Part shown: positions 54,246 to 64,000 of the stretch, in pieces | Numbering within the stretch: the first letter of the stretch is position 1 | How the letters are laid out: the number at the start of each line of letters is the position of its first letter | DNA from: Dehalococcoidia bacterium | GTDB taxonomy: Bacteria > Chloroflexota > Dehalococcoidia > Lucifugimonadales > UBA2962 | DNA length: 64,000 bases | Assembly (NCBI GenBank): GCA_965250195.1 | Contig: OZ252295.1 | Coordinates: 1,295,212 to 1,359,211 of the forward strand | Direction of reading: 5' to 3' | Translations under genes and position numbers: made by a program | The notes under the pieces: generated by a model | Databases searched by the model: none | Seen by the model: only the letters and a program-made list of their open reading frames with translations | What the model was told of the DNA's origin: nothing

Positions 54246-55328
54246 ATGGCCGCCATCCTGCACGCTGACTTCGACGCCTTCTACACCTCGGTAGAACAGC
54301 GCGACGACCCGGCGCTGCGCGGTAAGCCCGTCGTCGTGGGTGGCGACCCCGAAACGAGGGGCGTCGTTGCGGCCGCATCTTACGAAGTGCGGGAGTTCGG
54401 CGTCCGCTCCGCCATGCCCATGAAGACCGCCATGAGGCTGTGCCCCCACGCCGTTCGGGTTTATCCGAGGTTCGAGGTTTATCGAGACGTCTCCCGCCAG
54501 GTCATGGAGATTTTTCGTGTGGTCACGCCCCTGGTCGAGCCGCTCTCTCTCGATGAGGCGTTTTTGGACGTCACGAATCGAGTGGATGAGCAATGGTCCC
54601 CGGAAAAGATTGCCCGCGGCCTCAAGGGCCGTATCAAAAAGCGCACGAGCCTGACCATCTCCATCGGCGTCGCGTCCAGCAAGTCGGTGGCAAAGATCGC
54701 CTCGGACATGGACAAGCCCGACGGTCTCACGGTGGTCGTTCCAGGTAAAGAACAGCAGTTCTTGGCTCCGCTCCCGGTTGGCCGACTGTGGGGCATCGGC
54801 CCCAAGACCCAGGAGCGCCTGGCGGGCGACGAAATCACGACCATCGGTCAGCTCGCAGAGCGACCGGTCGAATGGTTCGCGAAAAATTTCGGGAAAAACG
54901 GCCCGTTTTTTCGGGACCTCGCCAACGGCATCGACCAAAGGCCCGTAGTGGTGGAACGCAGGCGAAAGTCTTTGAGCGCCGAGACCACGCTCGCCGTCGA
55001 CTCCGGCGACACCGAGCAGCTAACCGAACTGGTCGAGAGATTGAGCGCAAGGGTTGGAAGCCAGTTAGAGCGGCGGGGCATGTCCGGCCGCACCGTGAAG
55101 CTGAAGCTGCGGCTGGAAGATTTTACGACTTTCACCCGCCAGGTAACGCTTGATCACCCGGTGTCATCACCGGACGAAATCGGCCGGGCGGCGACGGAGA
55201 TGCTGCGCCGAGAGCTGGCCCCAGACCGGCGCTTCCGGCTCGTCGGCGTCGGCGTCTCCGGCTTCGAGACCCCCGAGACGGCCGAAGAAGAGAACCCCTT
55301 GCAGCCCCGTCTGGTCGGACTGGGCTAG
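54246..55328 (+). CDS. dinB: DNA polymerase IV
   Basis: ILHADFDAFYTSVEQRDDPALRGKPVVVGG, SLDEAFLDVT, and GIGPKT motifs. Confidence 0.92.
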   Translation: MAAILHADFDAFYTSVEQRDDPALRGKPVVVGGDPETRGVVAAASYEVREFGVRSAMPMKTAMRLCPHAVRVYPRFEVYRDVSRQVMEIFRVVTPLVEPLSLDEAFLDVTNRVDEQWSPEKIARGLKGRIKKRTSLTISIGVASSKSVAKIASDMDKPDGLTVVVPGKEQQFLAPLPVGRLWGIGPKTQERLAGDEITTIGQLAERPVEWFAKNFGKNGPFFRDLANGIDQRPVVVERRRKSLSAETTLAVDSGDTEQLTELVERLSARVGSQLERRGMSGRTVKLKLRLEDFTTFTRQVTLDHPVSSPDEIGRAATEMLRRELAPDRRFRLVGVGVSGFETPETAEEENPLQPRLVGLG

Positions 55329-55371
55329 AGTGCCGTGTGGACCGGGTCCGCATGCTCTAACATCGGTTGCC

Positions 55372-55989
55372 ATGATCGCCGACCCCTCATCGACGCCTGA
55401 GCCCGACGGCCTCGTTCGCTGCCACGACGAGGTCTACGAGACCTTCGAGCGTCTCGAATATCACGACCGTTACTGGGGCACCCCCACGCGCAACGAGCGG
55501 CGGCTCTTCGAATTCCTCTCCCTCAGCGGAATGCAGGCCGGTCTCAGCTGGTGGACAATCTGGCGTCGCCGGGAGGCTTTTCGCGCAGCATTTGACGATT
55601 TTGAACCCTCTAAAGTAGCGGACTACGGCGAAGACAAGATCGAAAAACTGCTCAACGACAAGGGGATAATTCGCAACCGGACCAAAATCAACGGAATCAT
55701 CACCAACGCCCGTGCCATCGGGACCCTGGCTCCTGAGTTCGCCAGTTTGACCGATTACCTTTGGTCCTATTTGGGCGGCAGCCCGAGGCTCAACCGGTGG
55801 GCCCGCAACGAGACCGTCCCCGCCGTCGCGCCGCCGGCGCAAGAGTTGAGTGTCGACATGAAGAAGCGCGGATTCAAATTCTGCGGGCCGACCATCATGT
55901 ACGCCTACATCGGCTCCGTCGGCCTCGTAAACGACCACCGCGAGGGCTGCTACAAGCAGGGCGAGCAACCCTTTGATATGAGCCGTTAA
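55372..55989 (+). CDS. tag: DNA-3-methyladenine glycosylase I (Tag), paralog 1
   Basis: RC...YHDRYWGTP...FEFLSLSGMQAGLSWWTIWRRREAFRAAF...IIRNRTKI...GPTIMYAYIGSVGLVNDH. The start is set at ATG 55372; the tracked ORF (55150) merely extends over the dinB 3' end. Confidence 0.85.
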   Translation: MIADPSSTPEPDGLVRCHDEVYETFERLEYHDRYWGTPTRNERRLFEFLSLSGMQAGLSWWTIWRRREAFRAAFDDFEPSKVADYGEDKIEKLLNDKGIIRNRTKINGIITNARAIGTLAPEFASLTDYLWSYLGGSPRLNRWARNETVPAVAPPAQELSVDMKKRGFKFCGPTIMYAYIGSVGLVNDHREGCYKQGEQPFDMSR

Positions 55990-55992
55990 CCC

Positions 55993-56568
55993 ATGCCCGA
56001 GCCAACCCGCTGCGACTGGTCCACCGACGACCCTGAGATGGTCGCCTACCACGACGAGGTGTGGGGGGTGCCACAGCGCGACGACCGGGCGCTGTTCGAG
56101 TTCCTAACGCTGGAGGGCGCCCAGGCGGGCCTGAGCTGGAGCACAATCTTGCACAAACGTGAAGGCTATCTTCGCGCCTTCGAAAAATTCGACGCCTCCG
56201 TCGTGGCAGGATACGACGAGGCCAAAATCGAGAGCTTGCTTGCCGACCCCGGCATCATCCGCAACCGCCTCAAGGTGCGCTCCACCATCACCAACGCGGC
56301 CGTGATAATCGAGCTACGGGATGCGGGCGTCAGCCTGTCCGATTACCTGTGGGCCTTCGTGGATGGCGTACCGATCGTGAACCGGCGCCGCGAAATGTCG
56401 GAAGTCCCCGCCGTCACGGACGAGGCTGCGGCCATGAGCAAGGCGCTGAAAAAGCGTGGCTTCCGCTTCGTCGGCCCAACCATCTGCTACGCGTTAATGC
56501 AGGCCTGCGGCATGGTCAACGACCACGTAGTGGACTGCTTCCGGTACTCAGAAGTGTCTGAGGGCTAG
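55993..56568 (+). CDS. tag: DNA-3-methyladenine glycosylase I (Tag), paralog 2
   Basis: RCDW...YHDEVWGVP...FEFLTLEGAQAGLSWSTILHKREGY...IIRNRLKV...GPTICYALMQACGMVNDH. Confidence 0.9.
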   Translation: MPEPTRCDWSTDDPEMVAYHDEVWGVPQRDDRALFEFLTLEGAQAGLSWSTILHKREGYLRAFEKFDASVVAGYDEAKIESLLADPGIIRNRLKVRSTITNAAVIIELRDAGVSLSDYLWAFVDGVPIVNRRREMSEVPAVTDEAAAMSKALKKRGFRFVGPTICYALMQACGMVNDHVVDCFRYSEVSEG

Positions 56569-58814: not shown

Positions 58815-60254
58815 ATGGCAACGACGGACGAACTCGCCCTAACCGCCCACCTTATGCGCCGCGCCGGTTTCGGCGTGTCTTGGTCCGACCTTGAGCGGCT
58901 GTCCGGCCAGAACTACGAGCAGCTAGTAGAAGAACTGCTCCACCCGGAGGACAACCCCCCGGTGGACGAGTTCCTTCTTTACCGTTACCACCCCACCACC
59001 GAGATACCGGGCGGCAACGTGGCCCAGGGTCAGGCCAACTACCTGTTCCACATGATCAACACCCCCCGGCCGCTGGAAGAGAAACTGGCGCTGTTCTGGC
59101 ACCACGTCTTCGCCACCGGGAACAACAAGGTCGACAACTGCAACCACCTCATGGACCAGGTGCAGATGTTCCGCGACCACGGCATGGGCAACTACCGCGA
59201 CATGCTCAAGCGCATCGCCCGGGACCCGGCCATGATCTACTGGCTCGACAACCAGGAGAACCACAAATACGCCCCCAACGAGAACTGGGGCAGGGAACTG
59301 CTCGAGCTTTTCTCTATGGGTGTCGGGACCTACTCGGAGACCGACGTCTTCGAGGCCTCGCGCGCCTTCACTGGCTGGACCGTCTCGGCCAAGATGCCGA
59401 GATTCCCTTATGGCCGATTCCCTTGGACCTTCGAGTTCCGGGCCGAGGACCACGACGAGACCGACAAGACGTTTTTGGGCCACACTGGCAACCTCAACGG
59501 CGACGACATCATCGACATCGTCGTTGAGCAACCGGCATGTCACCGCTTCATTGCCCGCCACCTGTACAACTTCTTCGTCGCCGACGAGCCCCAGGTACCG
59601 GCCTGGCAGATCGAAGAGCCCCGAGACCCGGCCGCAGTGGACGCCATCGCAAAGGTCTTCGTGGAGTCCAACCTGGAAATACGTCCCGTACTGAGATTCA
59701 TCTTCAACTCCGACTTCTTCAAGTCAAAGGCCGTGCGGTTCCAGAGGGTCAAGTCTCCAGCCGAGGTCGTTGTGGGCACCGTGAACATGATCGACGAATA
59801 CAAGGGGCCCGTGCCCTATCTGGAGATAGACCTCTCCCGGCAGGCCGGGTATATGGGCCAGGACATACTCGACCCGCCCAGCGTAGAGGGCTGGCACACC
59901 GGCAAGGAGTGGATCAACTCCGGCTCGCTGGTCACCCGCATCAACTTCGTCGCGGGCATGGTGAGCAACCCCGCCCACAAGGGCGTGCGCGACATCATCG
60001 ACCGGGTCCACGCCGAGCCGGGCGTCGCCTCTCCCGAGGGTCTGGTGGACGCCACGTTGAAATACATGGGCATGGTCGAAGTAGGGCAGGACACCCGGCG
60101 AGAGCTGGTAGAGCACGCCCGAGGCGCCAGCCCCATCGCCGCAAACGAAGGCGGCAACGGAAACGGCCACAGTGCCGCAAATGCGAGCACCGACACGGCC
60201 GTAATGGAGATGATGTCCCTCATCGCCGCCACTCGCGAATACCAGTTCTGTTAA
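58815..60254 (+). CDS. DUF1800 family protein (no recognisable signal peptide)
   Basis: N-terminal LTAHLMRRAGFG... and ...LFWHHVFATG...MIYWLDN...NENWGRELLELFSMGVG are the DUF1800 patterns. A GAGGAG Shine-Dalgarno precedes the ATG. Confidence 0.8.
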   Translation: MATTDELALTAHLMRRAGFGVSWSDLERLSGQNYEQLVEELLHPEDNPPVDEFLLYRYHPTTEIPGGNVAQGQANYLFHMINTPRPLEEKLALFWHHVFATGNNKVDNCNHLMDQVQMFRDHGMGNYRDMLKRIARDPAMIYWLDNQENHKYAPNENWGRELLELFSMGVGTYSETDVFEASRAFTGWTVSAKMPRFPYGRFPWTFEFRAEDHDETDKTFLGHTGNLNGDDIIDIVVEQPACHRFIARHLYNFFVADEPQVPAWQIEEPRDPAAVDAIAKVFVESNLEIRPVLRFIFNSDFFKSKAVRFQRVKSPAEVVVGTVNMIDEYKGPVPYLEIDLSRQAGYMGQDILDPPSVEGWHTGKEWINSGSLVTRINFVAGMVSNPAHKGVRDIIDRVHAEPGVASPEGLVDATLKYMGMVEVGQDTRRELVEHARGASPIAANEGGNGNGHSAANASTDTAVMEMMSLIAATREYQFC

Positions 60255-60284: not shown

Positions 60285-61466
60285 ATGACCACAGCACAAA
60301 AAGACCCGGTCGTCGTCGTAGTCCAGCTATCGGGTGGCAACGACTACCTCAACACCGTAGTCCCCTACGCCGACCCCAACTACTACGATGGGCGGCGTAA
60401 CCTCAACATCCCCGAAGACCAGGTTCTTCATCTCGATGATGAATTGGGCTTCCACCCTGCAATGGGACCGATGGCACGCATGTACAAAGAGGGCAACGTA
60501 GCCGTCATCCACGGCATCGGCTACCAGAACTCGGTGCGCTCCCACTTCCGGTCCATGGACATCTGGCACACGTGTGAGCCGGTGAAGGTCGGCACAGAGG
60601 GCTGGTTGGGCAGAGCTACAAGAGAGCTGGACCCGAACGGCGAAAACCCGGTCACCGCGGTCAACTTCGGCCACGGTCTGCCCCGTGCCCTGGTGGTGCC
60701 GGGAGTCTCGGTGGCATCAGTTGCGGACCTGTCCAACTACGGCCTGCTCACCGACATAGCGGAGCGGGAAAAGCGAGAGGCGGTGCTGCAGCGCTTCACC
60801 AACATCTACGCCCCTGAGATGGGAGCGGGGCAAGTTATGGATTATCTCGGCCAGACAGGTCGTGACGCCCTGAAGGGGGCCGACATCCTCAAGGCCGCGC
60901 CTCAGAAATACAACTCCACCGTCGAGTACGCTTCGACCGGCATCGCCCGGAGCCTGCGGGACATCGCCATGACCCATACGGCCAACCTCGGCACCCGCAT
61001 CTTCTACACCCAGCACGGCAGCTACGACACCCACGCCGGGCAGGCGGCTGCCCATCACAAGTTGTGGTCCGAGCTATCGGTCGCCATATCCGACTTCTGG
61101 GACGACCTGCGCGAGCACGACGCCGACGAGAACGTGGTCATGTACCTGTTCTCCGAGTTCGGTCGCCGGGTGCGCGACAACGGCTCCGGCACCGACCACG
61201 GAGCGGCCGGGGTGTCGTTTGTGATCGGTCCCAGGGTTGCGGGTGGCATGTACAGCACCTACCCGGACACCAGGGCAGAGGCGCTGGACCAGGGCGATCT
61301 CGTCCCCAACGTAGACTTCCGCAGCTCCTACGCCACCATCCTGGAGGACTGGCTGAGGCTCGACGCCGTGCCCATCGTCAAAGGCTCCTTCGAAAAGCTG
61401 GCATTCGTCGGTAGCGGCCCCAGCGGCGGCAATGGGCCCAATGGCGGCAACGGGGCTAGGGTGTAG
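60285..61466 (+). CDS. DUF1501 family protein (sulfatase/alkaline-phosphatase-like fold); lacks the usual Tat signal
   Basis: VVVQLSGGNDYLNTVVPY...HPAM...IHGIGYQNSVRSHFRSMDIW...FYTQHGSYDTHAGQ...SEFGRRVRDNGSGTDHG is the DUF1501 pattern. The N-terminus MTTAQKDP goes straight into the first beta strand. Confidence 0.8.
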   Translation: MTTAQKDPVVVVVQLSGGNDYLNTVVPYADPNYYDGRRNLNIPEDQVLHLDDELGFHPAMGPMARMYKEGNVAVIHGIGYQNSVRSHFRSMDIWHTCEPVKVGTEGWLGRATRELDPNGENPVTAVNFGHGLPRALVVPGVSVASVADLSNYGLLTDIAEREKREAVLQRFTNIYAPEMGAGQVMDYLGQTGRDALKGADILKAAPQKYNSTVEYASTGIARSLRDIAMTHTANLGTRIFYTQHGSYDTHAGQAAAHHKLWSELSVAISDFWDDLREHDADENVVMYLFSEFGRRVRDNGSGTDHGAAGVSFVIGPRVAGGMYSTYPDTRAEALDQGDLVPNVDFRSSYATILEDWLRLDAVPIVKGSFEKLAFVGSGPSGGNGPNGGNGARV

Positions 61467-61475
61467 GGAGGCGAA

Positions 61476-62483
61476 ATGCTTACGACGACAGCGCAGGGGC
61501 GAACCTGGGAATTCAGTCACGCGATAGGCCGCATCGCGGGCGTCGGCGAGGGCTTCTTCGGCCCCACTGCGGTCGCCACCGCGCCCGGCGGGATCTTGTA
61601 CGTGCTCAATCGCGGCCATGCCGGGGGCGACCTGGGCGTCACCGTGCAAAACCAGCGAGTCTCCAAACTAACGCTTGATCACGAGTTGTTGGGGGAATTT
61701 GGGCGAATGGAAATGACCTGGCCCGTCGCGCTCGCCGTAGCGCCCGACGGCCGCGTCTTTTGCACAGACGAGCACCGCAACTTCGTCGCCATCTACAGCC
61801 CAGAAGGCGAGCGCCTGGATCAATGGGGCGAACCCGGCGACGGCCCCGGCCACATGAGCGGCCCATCCGGCATCACCTTCGACAACGACGGCAACGTCTA
61901 CGTCGCGGACACAGGGTCCAATCGCATTCAACGTTTCACCAGTGACGGCGAGTACATCTCCGGTTGGGGCGGTCCTGGGACGTCCCCCGGCCAATTCCAC
62001 AGGCCCTGGGGCCTGACGGTCGATGCCGAGGGCTCGGTATACGTGGCCGACTGGGGCAACGACCGGGTGCAGAAACTCACCGGTGACGGCGTCCACCTGA
62101 TGACCCTGGGCAACGAGAACACCCACATGTCCGGGTTGCTGCGCCCCTCCGACGTCGCCATCGACTCGGCAGGCGACATCTACGTCGTGGACTGGGGCAA
62201 CCACCGCGTCCGCATCTACGATCCGTCCGGCGCCCCATTAGCATCGCTGATCGGAGACGACCAGGAGTTTTCCAAGTGGGCAAAGGCCGTCGTCGAGTCC
62301 AACCCCGACGTGGTCAAGGCATTCAGGCGCGTCGATGACCTCTCGCCCATGTACCGGTTCAACCGGCCCACGGGCATCGCCATCGACGAACACGACCGCA
62401 TCATCATCTCGGACACCAACCGGGGCCGGGTGCAGGTCTACGCCAGGGAAACGGACTTCACCGAAGCCCAGTTCAACCTTTAA
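61476..62483 (+). CDS. Six-bladed NHL-repeat beta-propeller protein
   Basis: Six NHL units are readable, e.g. GPSGITFDNDGNVYVADTGSNRIQRF, RPWGLTVDAEGSVYVADWGNDRVQKL, RPSDVAIDSAGDIYVVDWGNHRVRIY and RPTGIAIDEHDRIIISDTNRGRVQVY. Confidence 0.85.
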   Translation: MLTTTAQGRTWEFSHAIGRIAGVGEGFFGPTAVATAPGGILYVLNRGHAGGDLGVTVQNQRVSKLTLDHELLGEFGRMEMTWPVALAVAPDGRVFCTDEHRNFVAIYSPEGERLDQWGEPGDGPGHMSGPSGITFDNDGNVYVADTGSNRIQRFTSDGEYISGWGGPGTSPGQFHRPWGLTVDAEGSVYVADWGNDRVQKLTGDGVHLMTLGNENTHMSGLLRPSDVAIDSAGDIYVVDWGNHRVRIYDPSGAPLASLIGDDQEFSKWAKAVVESNPDVVKAFRRVDDLSPMYRFNRPTGIAIDEHDRIIISDTNRGRVQVYARETDFTEAQFNL

Positions 62484-62821
62484 TGCCGATGATGGTGGGC
62501 TTCTCGGCCCAGCGCTCCGAGGCGTTGCGGCGTGAGGTCGAGCGCTACGTCGCCATGATGCCGACGCTCGGTGTAGATCGCGCCGTATTGATCGGCGACC
62601 TCGCCGTCGGCAACGTCGAGCCAACGACCCCTGTTCAGCTCGTCGTCGTGCACGAAACGGACGCGCCCTTTTCCCGCAGGGCCGACTTCTTCTACAGCCA
62701 TCTGGAGCCCCGCGTCGCCCTGGACGTGACCGTCTACACCCGTGACGAGTTTTTCGAAATCTCGGAAGGCGACGGCCCTGCCGGTCAGCTCATAAGGTCC
62801 GGCGACTCCATCTTCGGCTGA
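62483..62821 (+). CDS. Minimal nucleotidyltransferase (MNT)-like protein, apparently lacking the DxD catalytic pair
   Basis: The size (112 aa), the ...LIGDLAVGN-x8-QLVVV... segment and the ...LDVTVYTRDEF tail fit the MNT fold. The position upstream of a HEPN gene, with a TGATG stop/start overlap to it, also fits. Confidence 0.55.
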   Translation: MPMMVGFSAQRSEALRREVERYVAMMPTLGVDRAVLIGDLAVGNVEPTTPVQLVVVHETDAPFSRRADFFYSHLEPRVALDVTVYTRDEFFEISEGDGPAGQLIRSGDSIFG

Positions 62822-63228
62822 TGGCAGGCGTGAAAAACAACGGCGCGCGCTGGGTGAGTCAGGCCGCACGCGACCTGGGCGACGCCGGTTACCTGCGCGA
62901 CGGAGGTCGGCACAACACGGCCTGCTTCATGGCTCACCAGGCCGCGGTCAAGGCGTTAACCGGCTACCTGTACGTCGAGGGTGCCGAGGCCGTGTGGGGC
63001 TCGTCCGTCGCCGACCTGTGCGAGGACGCGGGCGTCTTCGACCAGAGCTTCTTCACTCTCAAGGCCGACACTGTCTTTCTCGACAAGTATGCGAAGGCGA
63101 CCCTGGCGCCCGACATGCTGCCCGGCGGCATCCCCGCCGACGCTTATGATGACCTCGAATCCGAGCGCGCCGTCGAACTGGCGAGCCAGGTCCTGGCCTT
63201 CGTGTCCGAGCGAACCAGCTCTGCTTGA
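62821..63228 (+). CDS. HEPN domain protein (PF05168-like), conserved polar residues substituted
   Basis: WVSQAARDLGDAGYL...ACFMAHQAAVKALTGYL...FLDKYAKATLAPD...AYDDLESERAVELASQVLAFV follows the HEPN four-helix pattern. Confidence 0.6.
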   Translation: MAGVKNNGARWVSQAARDLGDAGYLRDGGRHNTACFMAHQAAVKALTGYLYVEGAEAVWGSSVADLCEDAGVFDQSFFTLKADTVFLDKYAKATLAPDMLPGGIPADAYDDLESERAVELASQVLAFVSERTSSA

Positions 63229-63283
63229 AGGCCCGTCGGCCCTCGCCTATAGTCCCCTGAAGCACCGAGCACGAGGAGAGAAA

Positions 63284-64000
63284 ATGGTCACCGAGCGCAT
63301 CGCGTACGTAAACGGCGAAATGGTTCCAGAGAGCGAGGCCCGCATCTCCATCAACGACGTCGGCTTCCTTTACGGCGACGCCGTGTTCGACACCACCCGC
63401 ACCTTCAACGGTGAAATATTTAGGCTCACCGAGCACCTCGACCGCTTCTACCGCTCCCTCAAGTACATGCGCGTCGACCCCGGCATGAGCAAGCGGGAGA
63501 TGGCCGACATCACCATGAAAGTGCTGGAGCACAACCTGAAACTGCGGGGAGAGAACGAAGACTACTGGGTCTCCCAGCGCGTCAGTCGCGGCACTCGTAC
63601 CCCCGACGGCCTGACCGGGCCGACCGTCGTGATGGAATGCTTCCCCCTGCCCTTCAAGCAGCGAGCGTCCCTGTACAGGGACGGCATGGCTATGGTCACA
63701 CCCTCCATTCGGCGCACCCCCCCAGAGTCGCAAAGCCCCAGAGCGAAAGTCCACAACTACGTCAACATCGTCCAGGCCGACCTGGAGGTAAAGGCCCAGA
63801 ACCCCGACGCCGTCGCCCTCCTGCTCGACGTCAACGGCAACCTCTGCGAAGGCATGGGCGCCAACATCTTCCTCGTCCGCGACGGGGAGATATACACACC
63901 CCGCGAGCAGTTCATCCTCGCCGGAATATCCCGCAGCGTGGCCATAGAGATGGCGCACGAGTTGGCCATACCCATGCACGAGGCCGACCTCGACCTTTAC
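63284..64000 (+). CDS. Class IV aminotransferase (branched-chain amino acid / D-amino acid aminotransferase), 3' end outside the window
   Basis: My own translation from ATG 63284 (AGGAGAG Shine-Dalgarno 4 nt upstream): MVTERIAYVNGEMVPESEARISINDVGFLYGDAVFDTTRTFNGEIFRLTEHLDRF...KVHNYVNIVQADLEVK...GNLCEGMGANIFLV...GISR. It stays open to the window end and is not in the ORF track because no stop codon is reached. Confidence 0.85.
   Translation, partial: MVTERIAYVNGEMVPESEARISINDVGFLYGDAVFDTTRTFNGEIFRLTEHLDRFYRSLKYMRVDPGMSKREMADITMKVLEHNLKLRGENEDYWVSQRVSRGTRTPDGLTGPTVVMECFPLPFKQRASLYRDGMAMVTPSIRRTPPESQSPRAKVHNYVNIVQADLEVKAQNPDAVALLLDVNGNLCEGMGANIFLVRDGEIYTPREQFILAGISRSVAIEMAHELAIPMHEADLDLY

Follow-up and report, generated by a model that had tools for sequence, protein, structure and literature searches.

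Class II MNT–HEPN pairs, in which a minimal nucleotidyltransferase (MNT) of family PF01909 is encoded together with a HEPN protein of family PF05168 (Makarova and Koonin 2009; Yao et al. 2020, PMC7641770), are among the commonest predicted toxin–antitoxin modules. The MNTs of both classes are reported to conserve a GSX10DXD motif, and a GS-to-AT change within this motif of MntA abolishes the modification of HepT (Yao et al. 2020, PMC7641770). The HEPNs of Class II are devoid of RX4H and keep a conserved Tyr (Yao et al. 2020, PMC7641770). For the HEPN-T group, the predicted active site combines the basic residue of the motif with a preceding conserved His and with Ex3[KR], and has a conserved C-terminal Tyr as the probable site of nucleotidylation (Anantharaman et al. 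2013, PMC3710099). Here, a gene pair of this type was examined in a 64,000-nucleotide stretch of DNA from a Dehalococcoidia bacterium (contig OZ252295.1, positions 1,295,212 to 1,359,211), which is referred to throughout as the window. The pair, located at 62483-63228, comprises an MNT-like gene followed by a HEPN gene, both of which have lost the catalytic residues of their families, and is interpreted, with moderate confidence, as encoding a domesticated, non-catalytic Class II (PF05168-type) MNT–HEPN complex that is attached to a metabolic operon, as opposed to a mobile toxin–antitoxin system. What is new is a degenerate, operon-embedded variant of the known MNT–HEPN pairs.

The gene order, the overlap between the genes and both protein folds are those of the Class II modules (PMC7641770), and the solved HEPN structures closest to the window HEPN are TT1696 (1ufb), ST0689 (1wol) and TM0613 (1o3u). 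However, Class II MNTs keep GSX10DXD, whereas the window MNT-like protein has G-D and P-x-Q at the corresponding places and scores too low for PF01909; the HEPNs of Class II retain the Tyr, together with the His, the basic residue and Ex3[KR] (PMC3710099), all of which are replaced in the window HEPN; and Class II modules are patchy or mobile, whereas the window pair resides on the chromosome and is inherited together with a metabolic operon. Since the motif missing from the window MNT is the one reported to be conserved in both classes, the pair is atypical. The HepT/MntA pair likewise consists of two overlapping genes and shares the MNT fold (Foldseek matches 8xeo, 7bxo and 7ae9), but its HEPN belongs to a different family, and the window proteins lack both the RX4HXY motif of the HEPN and the MNT residues needed for AMPylation (PMC7641770). 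'Domestication' of MNT–HEPN pairs has been described already, for KNTase and GlnE-like proteins (PMC3710099); in these the inactivity is limited to the HEPN, the nucleotidyltransferase (NTase) remaining active, whereas both partners are degenerate in the window pair. The HEPN-like C-terminal domains of KNTase/GlnE-type enzymes and the HEPN of sacsin (3o10) provide examples of PF05168-like folds that serve as non-catalytic binders, although sacsin, unlike the window HEPN, is a eukaryotic multidomain protein. The closest functional parallel may be MtlR, an inactive HEPN encoded in the mannitol-utilisation operon, which acts as the repressor of that operon but does not bind its operator (PMC3710099). 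Both MtlR and the window HEPN are motif-less HEPNs encoded with the genes of a metabolic operon, and MtlR acts non-enzymatically; it belongs, however, to another HEPN family and has no MNT partner, and the regulatory role suggested here for the window pair is inferred from gene position. A paper on fused MNT–HEPN proteins (PMC13000451) contains nothing on Class II or inactive pairs.

Cluster look-up of the proteins of the pair returned merely 'hypothetical protein' as source annotation. The product of the MNT-like gene (62483-62821, forward strand), an open reading frame (ORF) of 112 amino acids, matches none of the Pfam NTase models, PF01909 and PF18765 included, even at E ≤ 1, and the same is true of the degenerate relatives P0085, P0086, P0089 and L086. 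Matches to Cmr1_like_C (0.085) and to the N-terminus of PII uridylyltransferase (0.067), obtained in searches of Pfam, NCBIfam and PADLOC, were set aside as sub-threshold noise. Because a direct sequence search of the PDB also returned nothing meaningful, homology to MNTs had to rest on a family profile and on the fold. A profile constructed from the window protein and 12 relatives (A1) retrieves 728 cluster representatives and reaches canonical MNTs, with the form LFGSLARGE..SDIDLIVV..vDilVYTPEEF, at E values of 1e-24 to 1e-10; these canonical relatives score above PF01909/PF18765. Alignment of A1 with a profile of 30 canonical relatives (A3) using hhalign gave a probability of 99.9% (E 1.9e-34) and proceeded without gaps across 109 columns, which settles the register of the motifs. 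All 30 canonical sequences share the G, S, D and D. In the window protein, G38-D39 stands at the G-S, P50-V51-Q52 at the D-x-D and D81 at the third Asp. The catalytic motif hG[GS]x9-13Dh[DE]h is absent, and D81 is the sole acid kept at the canonical positions. In the preliminary description of this locus the D-x-D was read as V-Q-L, a register that is off by one; its observation that neither position of the motif is acidic stands, as does the retention of the third acidic site. That description also allowed for acidic residues being brought into the catalytic positions by a profile alignment, and none was placed at either D-x-D position. The acids of 'HETD' were considered as stand-ins for the D-x-D and rejected, being located at the far end of strand 51-57 in the AlphaFold2 (AF2) model, and T59 of the same motif is near-invariant in canonical MNTs too, which further rules out a replacement.

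The AF2 model of the MNT-like protein has a mean confidence (pLDDT) of 82.5, and its best PDB matches in Foldseek, which are antitoxins of the MNT type and related NTases, are 8xeo, 2rff, 7bxo, 1wot, HI0073 (1no5) and KNTase. The product of 62483-62821 is a true MNT homologue with a Pol-beta fold. Since the Ser of the G-S and both Asp residues of the D-x-D are gone, it would be unable to bind Mg-NTP in the canonical manner. Within the subclade of the window, defined as the protein clusters at ≥77% identity together with loci L001 and L002, the columns of the former active site vary (D/E/A/G at position 39, P/H/A at position 50 and Q/R/E at position 52), and the motifs MVGF, MPTLG and PFxRRADFF stay fixed. 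Drift of catalytic columns amid fixed motifs looks like the signature of a protein that has been kept for a non-catalytic role.

The HEPN gene (62821-63228, forward strand) encodes a protein of 135 amino acids that matches PF05168 with an E value of 4e-13 (50 bits against a cut-off of 22) and, in sequence searches of the PDB, TT1696/1ufb (7e-15), TM0613/1o3u and ST0689/1wol. With the AF2 model of this protein (pLDDT 89.1), Foldseek retrieves 1ufb, 1wol and 1o3u at TM-scores of 0.74-0.78 (query-normalised) and sacsin 3o10 at 0.81. The product of 62821-63228 is a confident PF05168 HEPN with a helical fold. In alignments to 1ufb, 1o3u and 1wol, the His of GHS is paired with S61, the R-Y of TRYP with L95-A96 and the conserved Glu with V43. 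The window protein has GSS for the G-H/Y-S of the solved proteins, T-L-A-P for their T/S-R-Y-P and V-K-A-L-T for their E-[KA]-A-[LV]-K. The positions of the predicted HEPN-T active site are thus occupied by V43, T47, S61, L95 and A96. Among 83 relatives outside the subclade of the window, by comparison, E43, R95 and Y96 are each present in 83/83 and K47 in 78/83. The losses of the His and of R-Y that had been noted at the outset are borne out as S61 and L95-A96, and extend to the Ex3K element (EKALK to VKALT), which had been missed. The absence of family catalytic residues from both partners was therefore confirmed, by hhalign for the MNT and by the tally of 83 relatives for the HEPN, and on the HEPN side is stronger than first described; the interpretation that accompanied this observation is partly supported. 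HEPNs that lack every conserved polar residue are considered to be probable non-catalytic binders (PMC3710099).

The preliminary description had further suggested that an R-x4-6-H motif elsewhere in the HEPN would speak for activity. A literal instance, R26-DGGR-H31, is present, but it is off the motif position, in the loop between helix 1 and helix 2 of the model, and beyond the subclade its R and H vary (present in 17/47 and 16/47, respectively), so that it does not rescue the motif and was rejected as a hidden R-x4-H. The motif is in any case the wrong one for PF05168 (Class II) HEPNs, which are normally without it (PMC7641770), the relevant residues being the His, Arg(-Tyr) and Ex3[KR] (PMC3710099). 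The subclade also carries specific changes at otherwise conserved positions of both proteins, these being R4M, E16R, L19V, P87R, L100A and A103L in the MNT-like protein and Q39H, E43V, K47T, D57A, K71G/A, D78F and A84T in the HEPN. These joint substitutions may reflect a remodelled interface between the two.

The distribution of the pair, and the timing of the two losses, were examined by a genome scan with a HEPN profile, which returned at least 465 relatives. Eighty loci were kept, nearly all of them from Dehalococcoidia/SAR202-type metagenome-assembled genomes, and the MNT-like gene is directly upstream of the HEPN gene in 80/80, mostly overlapping it by 8 or 11 nt. When the window is included (81 pairs), the only fully canonical pairs are those of two non-Dehalococcoidia loci, L052 and L057. 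The G-S is replaced in 79/81 pairs, by G-D in 62, N-P in nine, G-A in five and other residues in the remainder, and the position of the first Asp of the D-x-D is non-acidic in all 79 degenerate pairs. An extra locus that was fetched by protein look-up, L088, has E-L-E at the D-x-D position; the MNT-like protein of L086 has D-I-E there, but with G-P for the G-S and Q for the third Asp. The HEPN residues are far better retained: 78/81 pairs have R-Y-P and 55/81 the His. The residues R, Y, E43 and K47 have been lost only in the subclade of the window, and TRYP is found again in P0035, the next relative (69% identity). Judged from these distributions, degeneracy of the MNT appears to be early and family-wide, and erasure of the HEPN site late and local, the two events being far apart. 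The double degeneracy is not a single event; both losses are real, but that of the MNT is ancient (79/81) and that of the HEPN is confined to the subclade.

Both genes are under purifying selection, as are their neighbours, and represent neither chance ORFs nor decaying pseudogenes. Ratios of non-synonymous to synonymous substitution rates (dN/dS) among the window, L001 and L002 are 0.08-0.16 for the MNT-like gene and 0.15-0.22 for the HEPN gene, and in the same comparison 0.13-0.24, 0.08 and 0.13 for the adjacent NHL, DUF1501 and DUF1800 genes, respectively. Intact reading frames are present in the window and in both L001 and L002, as well as in protein clusters at 90% identity, of which there are at least 14 for the MNT-like protein and at least 15 for the HEPN.

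In the window, the pair is preceded on the same strand by genes encoding a DUF1800 protein (58815-60254, the first of the co-directional cluster; PF08811, E 1.7e-102), a DUF1501 protein (60285-61466; PF07394, E 2.5e-23) and an NHL-repeat beta-propeller (61476-62483; PF01436, E 4.9e-42). The intergenic gaps are 30 nt between DUF1800 and DUF1501 and 9 nt between DUF1501 and NHL. The NHL and MNT-like genes share a TAATG stop/start overlap at 62481-62485 (TAA 62481-62483, ATG 62483-62485), and the MNT-like and HEPN genes a TGATG overlap at 62819-62823 (TGA 62819-62821, ATG 62821-62823). Both were read directly from the sequence, in agreement with the coordinates and overlapping coupling first reported for the pair. 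The window order, DUF1800-DUF1501-NHL and then the pair, recurs in L002, L069, L081 and L088/89, and in L001 as far as the contig reaches, this contig ending inside the DUF1501 gene (partial, 88% identity). The NHL gene is directly upstream of the pair in L001, L002, L069, L081 and L088, at a distance of ~20 nt in L001 and L002. In L086/87 the order is permuted to DUF1800-NHL-DUF1501 (L086:1884-6405), and in L082-84 DUF1800-DUF1501 is divergent from the pair (L082:3702-7426), with the NHL gene nearby on the other strand in L082 and L084. DUF1800/DUF1501/NHL genes therefore lie beside the pair in five lineages besides that of the window (L069, L081, L082-84, L086-87 and L088-89), in which the pair is ~50% identical to that of the window. 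A neighbourhood that persists despite permutation and inversion usually points to a functional link, and such a link between the pair and the DUF1800/DUF1501/NHL genes gains support from it.

Most of the remaining family is found in a different setting. At 69/80 loci, all within L004-L080 (e.g. L025:2666-6393), the pair lies directly after lutA (CCG), lutB (LUD + 4Fe-4S + LutB_C) and lutC (LUD) on the same strand, the gap between lutC and the MNT-like gene having a median of 35 nt and being ≤15 nt in 32/68 loci, often just 3-4 nt. The lutABC genes were sought in the 64 kb window and are absent. In a rough neighbour-joining tree of the concatenated pair proteins, which is distance-based and rooted on the canonical pairs, those linked to DUF1800/DUF1501/NHL form one clade that is sister to the lut-linked clade. 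The association with NHL, DUF1501 and DUF1800 that was proposed from the window alone thus recurs in five further deep lineages, but does not hold for the sister clade, which is attached to lutABC. Literature searches found nothing linking the lactate-utilisation genes (lutABC) with MNT–HEPN pairs, or SAR202 with HEPN, and for DUF1501 and DUF1800 together returned off-topic titles only. At L085 (L085:3420-9219) the pair has neither context; its flanking genes, one for an rve-type integrase and one of the HTH_Tnp_1 type, suggest a local rearrangement by insertion sequences. In L082-84 a gene for a protein of malate/L-lactate dehydrogenase family 2 (Ldh_2) is located directly 3' of the HEPN gene (L082:7601-8701), a second hydroxy-acid theme that is possibly coincidental.

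These data are consistent with the following scheme. The MNT-like protein would have kept its Pol-beta fold and lost canonical Mg-NTP binding, and the HEPN would have kept its helical bundle while losing Ex3K, the His of the family and the Arg-Tyr, of which the likely acceptor of nucleotidylation is part. The two proteins, produced in a fixed ratio as the presumptive last two cistrons of a DUF1800-DUF1501-NHL operon, would still form the tight heteromer that is typical of MNT–HEPN pairs. The heteromer would act non-enzymatically, by binding a ligand, RNA or protein, with neither AMPylation nor RNA cleavage, and most likely modulates or assists the products or the mRNA of the operon, a role as regulator or adaptor to which gene position points. 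Several observations weigh against this scheme. No experiment has been conducted on Class II MNT–HEPN pairs, and the 'catalytic residues' of PF05168 are hence predictions (PMC7641770). A Legionella HEPN has RNase activity that is independent of the R or H of the motif, using a Gln/Glu-Mg site (PMC11586414), and since that site lies elsewhere in the fold, cryptic active sites are conceivable here too. Motif-less HEPNs have also come out as toxic when screened on a genome scale (cited in PMC3710099), and D81, with D39 in some members, could in principle allow residual metal binding. The values of dN/dS are rough, dS being ~1-1.8 and so near saturation. Finally, the evidence from neighbourhood amounts to guilt by association, and the existence of two operon contexts could mean that the pair is a passenger at operon ends.

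A broader extension of the domesticated-complex interpretation can be put forward tentatively, as being somewhat doubtful. According to this, SAR202-type Dehalococcoidia have exapted a lineage-wide family of MNT–HEPN pseudoenzymes, whose members are dedicated to particular metabolic operons, either as accessory subunits or as post-transcriptional regulators; DUF1800-DUF1501-NHL would be served by one clade and lutABC by its sister, and the subclade of the window, with its HEPN site erased, would be the end point. If correct, this would be the first toxin–antitoxin-derived pair in which both partners have become non-catalytic housekeeping components, and would provide a handle on the function of DUF1800 and DUF1501. 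The family is large and vertically inherited in an abundant ocean lineage, and its MNT motif was lost long ago, yet the genes remain under selection and attached to operons. This constitutes a natural experiment, one suggesting that selection can maintain the MNT–HEPN scaffold for a function independent of both AMPylation and RNase chemistry. It further connects a dedicated accessory module with the DUF1800/DUF1501/NHL set and, in relatives, with lutABC.

An alternative explanation, which is considered unlikely, is that the pair is a toxin–antitoxin system of a binding-only, type II-like kind, in which the HEPN is toxic by a non-catalytic route, for example RNA sequestration, and is neutralised stoichiometrically by the MNT-like protein instead of by AMPylation. 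The layout is the classic one, with two small, adjacent, co-directional and overlapping genes and the MNT first, and motif-less HEPNs can be toxic, a non-catalytic mode having been proposed for them (PMC3710099). Moreover, most relatives keep R95/Y96, and 55/81 the His, beside an already degenerate MNT, which would fit a binding antitoxin. In the window, however, the HEPN is without every conserved polar residue of the putative site. The mobile and patchy distribution of toxin–antitoxin modules was not encountered either. Pairwise identities of the HEPN, MNT-like and LutB proteins over 67 loci, in the lut-linked sister clade, are closely correlated (Spearman 0.85-0.89), the HEPN being as well conserved as LutB, so that the pair co-diverges with neighbours of a housekeeping type at conserved chromosomal positions, and the operon contexts are clade-specific. 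The GC content of the window pair (0.63-0.67) is that of its surroundings, there is no second copy within the 64 kb window, and PADLOC called no system on the window pair. The co-divergence with LutB, native base composition and conserved positions make a role outside toxin–antitoxin function, as first proposed, the better reading.

It is less likely still that the proteins are cryptic enzymes, the MNT-like protein retaining NTase activity through a rearranged set of acids (D39, D81 and the D/E found at position 52 in relatives), with the HEPN as its substrate or substrate-binding subunit, in the manner of the two-subunit NTases HI0073/HI0074 and of KNTase. The family tally lends this idea something, since G-D stands for G-S in 62/81 pairs, and D/E occupies the second D-x-D position in 63/81 and the place of the third acid in 48/81; L086, furthermore, keeps D-x-E, and HI0073 and KNTase are among the Foldseek matches. 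In the subclade of the window, on the other hand, columns 39, 50 and 52 are unconserved, a pattern expected of a relaxed former active site, and in the window itself Q52 leaves two carboxylates and the likely Tyr acceptor, Y96, is gone. The remaining alternative, that the pair is a functionless relic of a former toxin–antitoxin module heading towards pseudogenisation, is very improbable and largely refuted, for although catalytic residues have gone from both genes and the subclade has moved away from the lutABC context of its sister clade, the frames are intact throughout, dN/dS (0.08-0.22) is as in neighbouring genes and many non-catalytic residues are invariant.

The position of the pair at the end of its cluster is in keeping with the operon arrangement assumed for the domesticated complex. 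A consensus scan detected a sigma-70-like promoter match, TTGAAG-17-TATAGT, at 63225-63253 on the forward strand, beginning at the HEPN stop codon and preceding a class IV aminotransferase gene (Pfam) that starts at 63284, 55 nt downstream of HEPN. The same consensus scan found no sigma-70-like match inside the DUF1800-to-HEPN cluster. The location of the match directly after the HEPN gene, ahead of the aminotransferase gene, suggests that the transcription unit ends with the MNT-like/HEPN pair. By eye, the DUF1800, DUF1501 and NHL proteins of the window have no obvious N-terminal signal or Tat motif. A Tat signal is usual on DUF1501 proteins, and the system may therefore be cytoplasmic in the lineage of the window. 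Further upstream, at 54246-56568, two tandem genes for DNA-3-methyladenine glycosylase I, each with a match to Adenine_glyco (E 1e-65 and 1e-78), come after a gene for a dinB-type polymerase (IMS domains).

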